A DNA stretch of 64,000 nucleotides from Escherichia coli (lineage in GTDB: Bacteria > Pseudomonadota > Gammaproteobacteria > Enterobacterales > Enterobacteriaceae): NCBI RefSeq assembly GCF_003334765.1, contig NZ_QOWT01000002.1. One strand, written 5' to 3'. The notes under the pieces are model-generated. The model searched no databases, was not told the origin of the DNA, and was given only the letters and a program-made list of their open reading frames with translations. A program made the translations under genes and the position numbers. Shown here piece after piece: positions 53,609 to 54,288 of the stretch (position 1 is its first letter; each line of letters opens with the position of its first letter).

Positions 53609-54288
53609 TATTTGTCCTTAAACTATAAATAATTAAAATATAAACATTGCAATACATTGATTCAGTCAATAGCCAATGTTTATACCCAGCCATTGAATAC
53701 GGCATGCGATCCAAAAAAACAGGTCGTAAAAAATGTATTCGTTGGTGTGGGGTCGAATAGTGATGTTTTCACTCCCCTGATTCAATTTAATTTTACTAAT
53801 GAGTAAATGTAGATTTAATTAATATATTGATAGGGGAAAGATTATCTTAAGGATCTTCTAAAAAAACACGAAATATATATTTAGAAAAAACAGGAAGCAT
53901 ATCAACAATGAATGCCAATAGCTTAAAAAACAAACAATGAACATATAATGCGATTGGCATTAACCCGCTTTTGTCGATATAATATATAAACACTATAGCC
54001 AGAATTTAATCAAGTTTCAATTACGTCCTGCCTGATTATTCAACTCTATTTTCTCCATTATCTGTATTAATAAATGATAATGAGTGTCAAACAGACATTA
54101 TTCATTTCAACATGTAACTTTGGGCAAAATCAAGATACGCGCAGAAGAATACTTTCCGAATGAAAGTTAAAGGTGTTTTATTTATAGATGGGGAGAGTCT
54201 TCGATAGTAGTGAGGTTGACAGATATCCGCTGCCTGATGAGCAATTATGCCCAATGAATCTACCTCATTGGGCATAATTTGGAACTCA
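53609..54288. promoter_or_regulatory. AT-rich ~680-bp upstream region of the yfc fimbrial operon (likely promoter and nucleoid-protein silencing target)
   Basis: Long non-coding stretch with many A/T runs (e.g. aaaaaaca motifs) immediately upstream of yfcV; composition is typical of H-NS-bound fimbrial promoters (inference). Confidence 0.5.
54244..54279 (-). other. Perfect 15-bp inverted repeat immediately 3' of sixA
   Basis: aattatgcccaatga (54244-54258) and tcattgggcataatt (54265-54279) separated by 6 nt; flanked by shorter outer arms ctgatgag/ctcatcag; no U-tract. Confidence 0.5.

Follow-up and report, generated by a model that had tools for sequence, protein, structure and literature searches.

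The window analysed here is a stretch of 64,000 nucleotides of the Escherichia coli contig NZ_QOWT01000002.1 (assembly GCF_003334765.1), in which the first gene of a chaperone-usher fimbrial operon, yfcV, is separated from sixA by a spacer that measures exactly 680 bp, the approximate length originally given for it (Table 1). The names yfcV and sixA are backed by the RefSeq annotation of identical K-12 sequence, and the neighbourhood of the spacer comprises yfcU, yfcS, sixA, fadJ and fadI. Window numbering equals that of NC_000913.3 minus 2,402,038, with two SNPs over the 10 kb compared, which places the spacer at NC_000913.3 2455647-2456326 in K-12, and no annotated feature lies inside it in the curated MG1655 record NC_000913.3 or in the other RefSeq records inspected. 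One of the SNPs, at 51227, falls within yfcU (50318-52963, minus strand), which is an intact 881-codon open reading frame (ORF) in the window but carries an internal stop in MG1655, where it is annotated as a pseudogene; the window is thus related to K-12 without being MG1655 itself. The second SNP lies at 56235 in fadJ. A few nucleotides past the yfcV stop codon and ahead of yfcU there is a G+C-rich stem-loop with a 10-bp stem (53013-53040, minus strand; ACCCCAUAGC...GCUAUGGGGU; z = -3.2), presumably the usual intercistronic hairpin favouring major-subunit over usher mRNA.

Table 1 Features of the yfcV-sixA spacer and its flanks, in window coordinates.
Feature	Position	Strand	Description
yfcV ORF	53045-53608	-	First gene of the yfcV-U-S-R-Q-P-O chaperone-usher fimbrial operon
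yfcV-sixA spacer	53609-54288	-	680 bp; probable promoter and leader region of the yfcV-U-S-R-Q-P-O fimbrial operon
Shine-Dalgarno region TTTAAGGACAAATA	53609-53622	-	Directly 5' of the yfcV ATG
Leader hairpin	53639-53684	-	Arms TATAAACATTG / CAATGTTTATA, 24-nt loop, -31 to -76 from the ATG
Conserved motif TTATAT	proximal leader	yfcV sense	Conserved across haplotypes
Conserved block TTCAATGG	53697->53690	yfcV sense
Conserved box CACACCAACGAATA	53736-53749	-	CACACCAAAGAATA in most haplotypes and in Pseudocitrobacter
Proximal promoter-like module TTGAAT-17-CACTAT	53757-53785	-	Candidate proximal promoter
Opposing promoter-like site TTGGCA-18-TATAAT	53954-53983	+	11/12 match
Distal sigma-70 promoter-like site TTGAAA-17-TATAGT	53992-54020	-	10/12 match; same sequence as the RpoD promoter from genomic SELEX
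sixA 3'-end hairpin	54229-54297	-	Starts at the sixA stop codon
sixA ORF	54289-54774	-

The spacer has a GC content of 31.9% against 0.51 for the whole window, which puts it in the lowest 0.06% of all 680-bp windows and makes it effectively the AT-richest stretch in the 64 kb; it also ranks fifth-longest among the gaps free of ORFs of at least 150 aa. The description of an unusually long, AT-rich non-coding region holds on both counts, as this GC content (0.319) is the window minimum and the spacer contains no conserved ORF. The second AT-richest stretch of the window is yfdF (60881-61560, GC 0.325). The spacer had further been called rich in A/T tracts and short repeats, a description that stands for tracts of six to seven A residues, which are modestly over-represented (5 versus 1.5, p ~0.02), and fails for the remainder. 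Tracts of at least four A or T residues number 12 against 12.2 expected from composition, the direct repeats are short, two-copy families, and Tandem Repeats Finder detected no tandem repeats in the spacer. Curvature, approached through the phasing of A-tracts as a proxy, gave no support either, as no 10-11 bp periodicity was found in the spacer.

Motif counts were similarly close to expectation. A simple consensus scan returned four promoter-like sites in the spacer (4.1 +/- 2.0 in dinucleotide shuffles). H-NS motif prediction, which had been proposed as a check, was uninformative: the query TCGATAAATT, allowing up to two mismatches, had three matches in the 680 bp, a mildly raised number, while its count across the whole window was not clearly above that in shuffles. 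Since the promoter-like sites occur at expectation and the H-NS motif is no more than mildly raised, the sequence evidence for a 'promoter island' or an 'H-NS site' is just AT-richness, and functional claims about the spacer rest on published ChIP and SELEX tables.

The spacer is one of 78 promoter islands of E. coli K-12, listed as 2453647_489 yfcV(-)/sixA(-) (Panyukov & Ozoline 2013, PMC3661553), and this island maps to approximately 53587-54075 of the window (converted from U00096.2 coordinates and good to a few bp). Promoter islands, defined as regions of at least 300 bp with an extreme density of transcription start points predicted by PlatProm, contain many overlapping promoter-like sites and show little productive transcription (PMC3661553). 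The island at yfcV carries the H-NS flag 'K', meaning that it was bound in the ChIP data of Kahramanoglou (MG1655) and Oshima (W3110), whereas binding is absent from the Grainger data, one of the three sets considered; it is also flagged as a genomic island by one predictor, GIST (PMC3661553). A second published promoter island in the window lies at yfdF/mlaA (2461920_303, ~61860-62160). Polymerase binding in vitro is documented as well. Genomic SELEX placed a constitutive sigma-70 (RpoD) promoter of yfcV, TTGAAA-17-TATAGT, in the spacer with the mark 'HNS' (Shimada et al., PMC3946193), and the same group reported a SELEX peak of the sigma-S (RpoS) holoenzyme in the yfcV-sixA spacer (PMC5493296). 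According to PMC3559732, citing Korea 2010, yfc is a functional but cryptic K-12 fimbrial operon, and many cryptic fimbrial operons of commensal strains are reported there to be H-NS-repressed. The yfcV transcript has been reported to rise when BolA is over-produced, when TosR is over-produced in CFT073, 1.9-fold upon over-production of CsiR, which has a ChIP peak at about window position 53940, and under inhibition of Rho by bicyclomycin. These effects of over-expression and of bicyclomycin may be indirect.

The original prediction, a fimbrial regulatory region silenced by H-NS and too long for a simple promoter, therefore agrees with the record. In its favour are the listing as a promoter island with an H-NS ChIP flag, the binding by the sigma-70 and sigma-S holoenzymes and the reported H-NS repression of the operon class. 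H-NS occupancy, named beforehand as a check, had already been published in the Kahramanoglou and Oshima data (PMC3661553). This interpretation of the spacer is correct but already known, and its checks have largely been done by others; the spacer is an ordinary, already catalogued feature to which the present comparison adds minor new detail, namely conservation of composition rather than sequence, a conserved proximal module with a hairpin, and recurrent IS1 insertion at three sites.

Of 5,426 complete E. coli genomes, 5,399 have yfcV, which falls into identity classes of at least 99%, 95-99%, approximately 84% and 67-71%. Approximately ten deeply diverged haplotypes were compared, the additional ones coming from one scan of a genome collection and one of metagenomes. 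A link to variable or horizontally acquired DNA was looked for and found: spacer, yfcV and 5' yfcU are 67-84% identical between representatives, beside 96-98% for sixA and fadJ. In terms of alleles, yfcV, the spacer and at least 5' yfcU occur as four to six classes at one fixed chromosomal site, and the K-12/B1 type is absent from the approximately 1,900 genomes with the CFT073-like allele, which is the 'yfcV' of uropathogenic E. coli (UPEC) typing; yfcV is widely used as a marker of uropathogenic strains. The yfcV leader of the E. coli MS69-1 haplotype also turned up, at 100% identity, in JAIJJM010000567.1, a 2.2-kb contig labelled MAG: Collinsella sp.; this contig almost certainly comes from E. 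coli and was mis-binned into the MAG of an actinobacterium.

Within the spacer, the two halves behave differently. In all eight genome haplotypes the spacer measures 558-683 bp at 26-32% GC. The distal 300 nt are approximately 60% identical between haplotypes versus a random baseline of 57%, and are thus barely alignable, while the proximal 220 nt are 61-77% identical versus a baseline of 55%, or 3-11 SD above it. What the distal half keeps is its length and composition and hardly its sequence, a pattern that fits a protein recognising the shape of AT-rich DNA and not a motif. Independent IS1 insertions have arisen at three positions of the spacer (54055-54064, 53714-53724 and ~53955-53980), the strains concerned being the natural isolates XJW9B277, LR-24 and F1267. 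In PCP06171, IS1 takes the place of yfcV and of the spacer up to the sixA hairpin, and a further IS1 copy inside yfcV was seen in another match.

Alignment across strains, another of the checks proposed, did reveal discrete conserved blocks, mainly in the proximal 220 nt. In the distal half, the consensus scan independently found the yfcV-directed site at 54020->53992, identical to the promoter listed from SELEX, from which a leader of approximately 375 nt is predicted; its -10 hexamer is kept in some haplotypes only. The plus-strand site lies face-to-face with this distal promoter, as a promoter island would predict, and overlaps TCGATATAAT, a two-mismatch match to the H-NS motif query. Conservation in the distal half is confined to two blocks, one of them the core ATATTA(T/A)AT (53976-53990).

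Conservation is more evident nearer the gene. In every full-length haplotype examined, the proximal promoter-like module is kept as TTGnnn-17-CAnnAT, with fixed spacing and at -176 to -190, and from its sequence a transcription start would be predicted near 53748-53750. The best-conserved internal block is the CACACCAAAGAATA box, found 7-9 nt downstream of the CAnnAT hexamer; it is a candidate for an operator or an initial transcribed sequence. The Shine-Dalgarno sequence TTTAAGGACAAATA does not vary among the haplotypes and is the same in Pseudocitrobacter. Comparison by eye of the conserved blocks with the RcsB and CpxR boxes gave half-site matches only. Outside E. coli, a yfcV-like gene with the same Shine-Dalgarno/ATG sequence occurs in Pseudocitrobacter vendiensis (NZ_CALSBS010000014.1 14525-14699), the leader of which, over the 154 nt upstream seen, also contains the TTATA hairpin arm, a CACCAAAGAATAT box and the CACTAT hexamer. 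This occurrence in another genus suggests that fimbrial module and proximal control region may be transferred horizontally as one unit.

A hairpin in the predicted leader is a further proximal element. Its K-12 arms, at 53684-74 and 53649-39, form an imperfect stem, and they stay paired in diverged haplotypes though the loops vary from 24 to 36 nt. Local folding gives z-scores of -3.5 to -4.7 in the K-12 and B2/F haplotypes and is weak in the EDL933, MS69-1 and E69 types (-1.0 to -1.7). For the evaluation of pairing, the sequences were aligned with the invariant motifs on either side as anchors and with the loops masked, a design that leans towards the structure and uses related sequences, and in which 85.5% of cells pair versus 33-49% in slid controls. 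On the same anchored alignment six pairs are changed on both sides, and the covariation score is 0.315 versus 0.183 +/- 0.020 after shuffling (reached in 0/500 shuffles). Pairing amounts to 89% on the sense versus 79% on the antisense strand; the better pairing of the sense strand, due to G.U pairs, favours an RNA in the yfcV sense, and the variable spacing between the arms argues against a dimeric protein site. RNAalifold did not recover the hairpin on unanchored MAFFT alignments of the leader, in which differences in loop length throw the arms out of register. At stem position 6, covariation that is striking when p11B is compared with SMS-3-5 was set aside after metagenome variants weakened it: the B2/F haplotype family contains mismatched A-C and A-A combinations at this position. 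As an element of the yfcV mRNA leader the hairpin is plausible but unproven.

The single strongly non-random structure of the region is the hairpin at the 3' end of sixA (-44 kcal/mol for the folded 96-nt segment, z = -7.4). The right-hand 60 bp of the spacer (54229-54288) belong to it and not to the yfcV control region. A hairpin with a GGGCAT core is present in every haplotype, the rest of the stem differing in sequence, and at this point conserved backbone gives way to the diverged yfc module. The K-12 haplotype has no U-tract at this hairpin whereas EDL933 has a T-run on both strands, and lineages may therefore differ in the extent of sixA read-through into the AT-rich spacer.

Taken together, the spacer is very probably the cis-regulatory region of the cryptic yfc operon, consisting of a promoter and a long untranslated leader embedded in AT-rich DNA that binds H-NS. 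Approximately 600 bp of AT-rich DNA would serve as the binding platform, and H-NS filaments would occlude or trap polymerase at the distal (~-375) and proximal (~-145) promoter-like sites. Transcripts escaping this block would cross a long untranslated leader in which they would be exposed to Rho, and would then carry the conserved hairpin, 30 nt ahead of the start codon, and after it an AU-rich stretch and the invariant Shine-Dalgarno sequence; the hairpin would presumably act at the RNA level, through stability, processing or translation. Under this scheme the distal half would be constrained in length and base composition only, and the proximal 220 nt would carry sequence-specific elements, with the blocks and the hairpin providing operon-specific control.

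The strongest challenge to a regulatory role is that the spacer could be mostly functionless AT-rich filler at the junction of an acquired fimbrial module, with some 40 bp before the ATG being all that matters. The distal 300 nt do align between haplotypes at the random baseline, the counts of promoter-like sites, H-NS motifs and repeats are as composition predicts, and IS1 insertions are tolerated at three sites. Against this, both the length of 558-683 bp and the GC content of 26-32% persist in all the deeply diverged haplotypes instead of eroding; the proximal 220 nt exceed the baseline by 3-11 SD and contain discrete invariant blocks that Pseudocitrobacter shares, and the hairpin arms stay paired across haplotypes. 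We consider this explanation unlikely. Its corollary, that H-NS and polymerase are bound merely because any AT-rich DNA binds them, is unlikely to the same degree, and silencing an expensive surface organelle is a function in itself.

Beyond the cis-regulatory region as a whole, a more specific proposal can be made tentatively from the pattern of conservation. The proximal 220 nt could form a dedicated Yfc control module made up of a promoter, the CACACCAAAGAATA box and the leader hairpin. Its promoter, TTGnnn-17-CAnnAT, has a weak -10 and might need an activator, with the CACACCAAAGAATA box situated at the predicted start; this too is a possibility on which we would not insist. With similar reserve, the hairpin (-31 to -76), which shows some compensatory changes, could govern the stability, processing or translation of the major-subunit mRNA. 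The module survives in haplotypes with approximately 30% coding divergence and in another genus. If the proposal is true, the proximal module, rather than H-NS alone, would decide when the cryptic, UPEC-associated Yfc fimbria is made.

The possibility that the spacer hides an unannotated gene, either a small regulatory RNA or a small protein such as a fimbrial regulator, is very unlikely. The 680 bp are long enough, strong promoter-like sites exist on both strands and short ORFs are present, but none of the ORFs is convincing, as had been stated from the outset: the longest encode 57, 49 and 48 aa, and stops or frameshifts interrupt all eleven ORFs (25-57 aa) in haplotypes other than A/B1, while most are interrupted even in B1, which is 93% identical. 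Within the 57-aa ORF, every substitution that separates A from B1 is non-synonymous. With regard to RNA, the covariance search suggested for structured RNA (Rfam 15 over 53000-55000, E up to 10) produced noise only, comprising three matches with E of at least 2 and far below the gathering scores. An intrinsic terminator-like site was not found in the spacer, no window of local folding consistently stands out beyond the sixA terminator and the leader hairpin, and the curated MG1655 annotation and the RefSeq records seen are empty here.

Switch-like control was found to be still less probable. A pap-type epigenetic switch, in which competition of Lrp and a PapI/PapB-like factor with Dam methylase for two GATC sites would set heritable ON and OFF states, has in its favour two GATC sites in the spacer (53707 and 53853), the former within the partly conserved block TTGGATCG. 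It was excluded and is extremely improbable, as the sites are approximately 146 bp apart rather than approximately 102 bp, the B1 haplotype, though 93% identical, lacks the distal site, the MS69-1 and B2/F haplotypes lack the proximal site, and the spacer contains neither a papI- or papB-like ORF nor any other conserved ORF. The negligible chance of a fim-type switch, in which a recombinase would flip a promoter segment between inverted repeats and render yfc phase-variable, as some fimbrial operons do, can be dismissed along with the perfect 10-bp inverted repeat that flanks 545 bp of the spacer (53623-32 / 54178-87), since repeats of at least 10 bp arise in 32% of dinucleotide shuffles, its arms are not conserved outside the A/B1 haplotypes, a synthetic inverted-state junction is covered to at least 80% in 0/5,426 complete E. 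coli genomes, at least 3,524 of 3,529 spacer-matching genomes have it in a single collinear place, and there is no recombinase gene among the neighbours yfcU, yfcS, sixA, fadJ and fadI. The original view that no obvious flanking repeats or invertible element exist is hence upheld, the best pair being this chance-level one.

As a cis-regulatory region, the spacer exemplifies textbook-style xenogeneic silencing of a cryptic adhesin operon and matters little beyond housekeeping. Its value lies in two features. The conserved proximal blocks and the leader hairpin are concrete targets for reporter and mutagenesis work, and the contrast between kept length and composition and unkept distal sequence offers a clean illustration of selection for DNA shape at an H-NS platform.

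These properties can be set against several known systems. The spacer is a listed member of the promoter islands described by Shavkunov, Ozoline and colleagues, and shares their AT-richness, their binding by polymerase and H-NS and their poor transcription; it shows no excess of promoter-like sites in a simple consensus scan, although the authors' definition uses PlatProm. The type 1 fimbrial switch fimS likewise comprises a few hundred bp of promoter-bearing, AT-rich DNA upstream of the major subunit gene, and the fim spacers are also promoter islands (PMC3661553). Unlike fimS, the yfc spacer has no conserved flanking repeats, no adjacent recombinase and no inverted form (0/5,426). A third parallel is found in silenced operons that are activated by insertion sequences. 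Insertion of such elements activates H-NS-silenced operons, including bgl and others, and AT-rich, H-NS-bound DNA is a usual target of IS1. The yfc spacer has likewise been hit by IS1 at three independent sites in natural isolates, where its effect could be to activate yfc or to abolish its expression; one IS1 event deleted yfcV outright.

A further parallel is provided by the H-NS-silenced, cryptic chaperone-usher operons of K-12 (sfm, yad, yeh, ybg, ycb/elf, yra and mat/ecp), which likewise place the major-subunit gene first. Like yfc, they have a long AT-rich spacer, are silent in laboratory culture and are functional when expressed. The spacers of sfmA, yadN, yehD, ecpR, elfA, ybgD and yraH are also promoter islands (PMC3661553). 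The yfc operon differs from these in having no dedicated regulator gene beside it, such as ecpR/matA or fimZ, and in that its spacer, yfcV and yfcU exist in several deeply diverged allelic classes at one conserved site.
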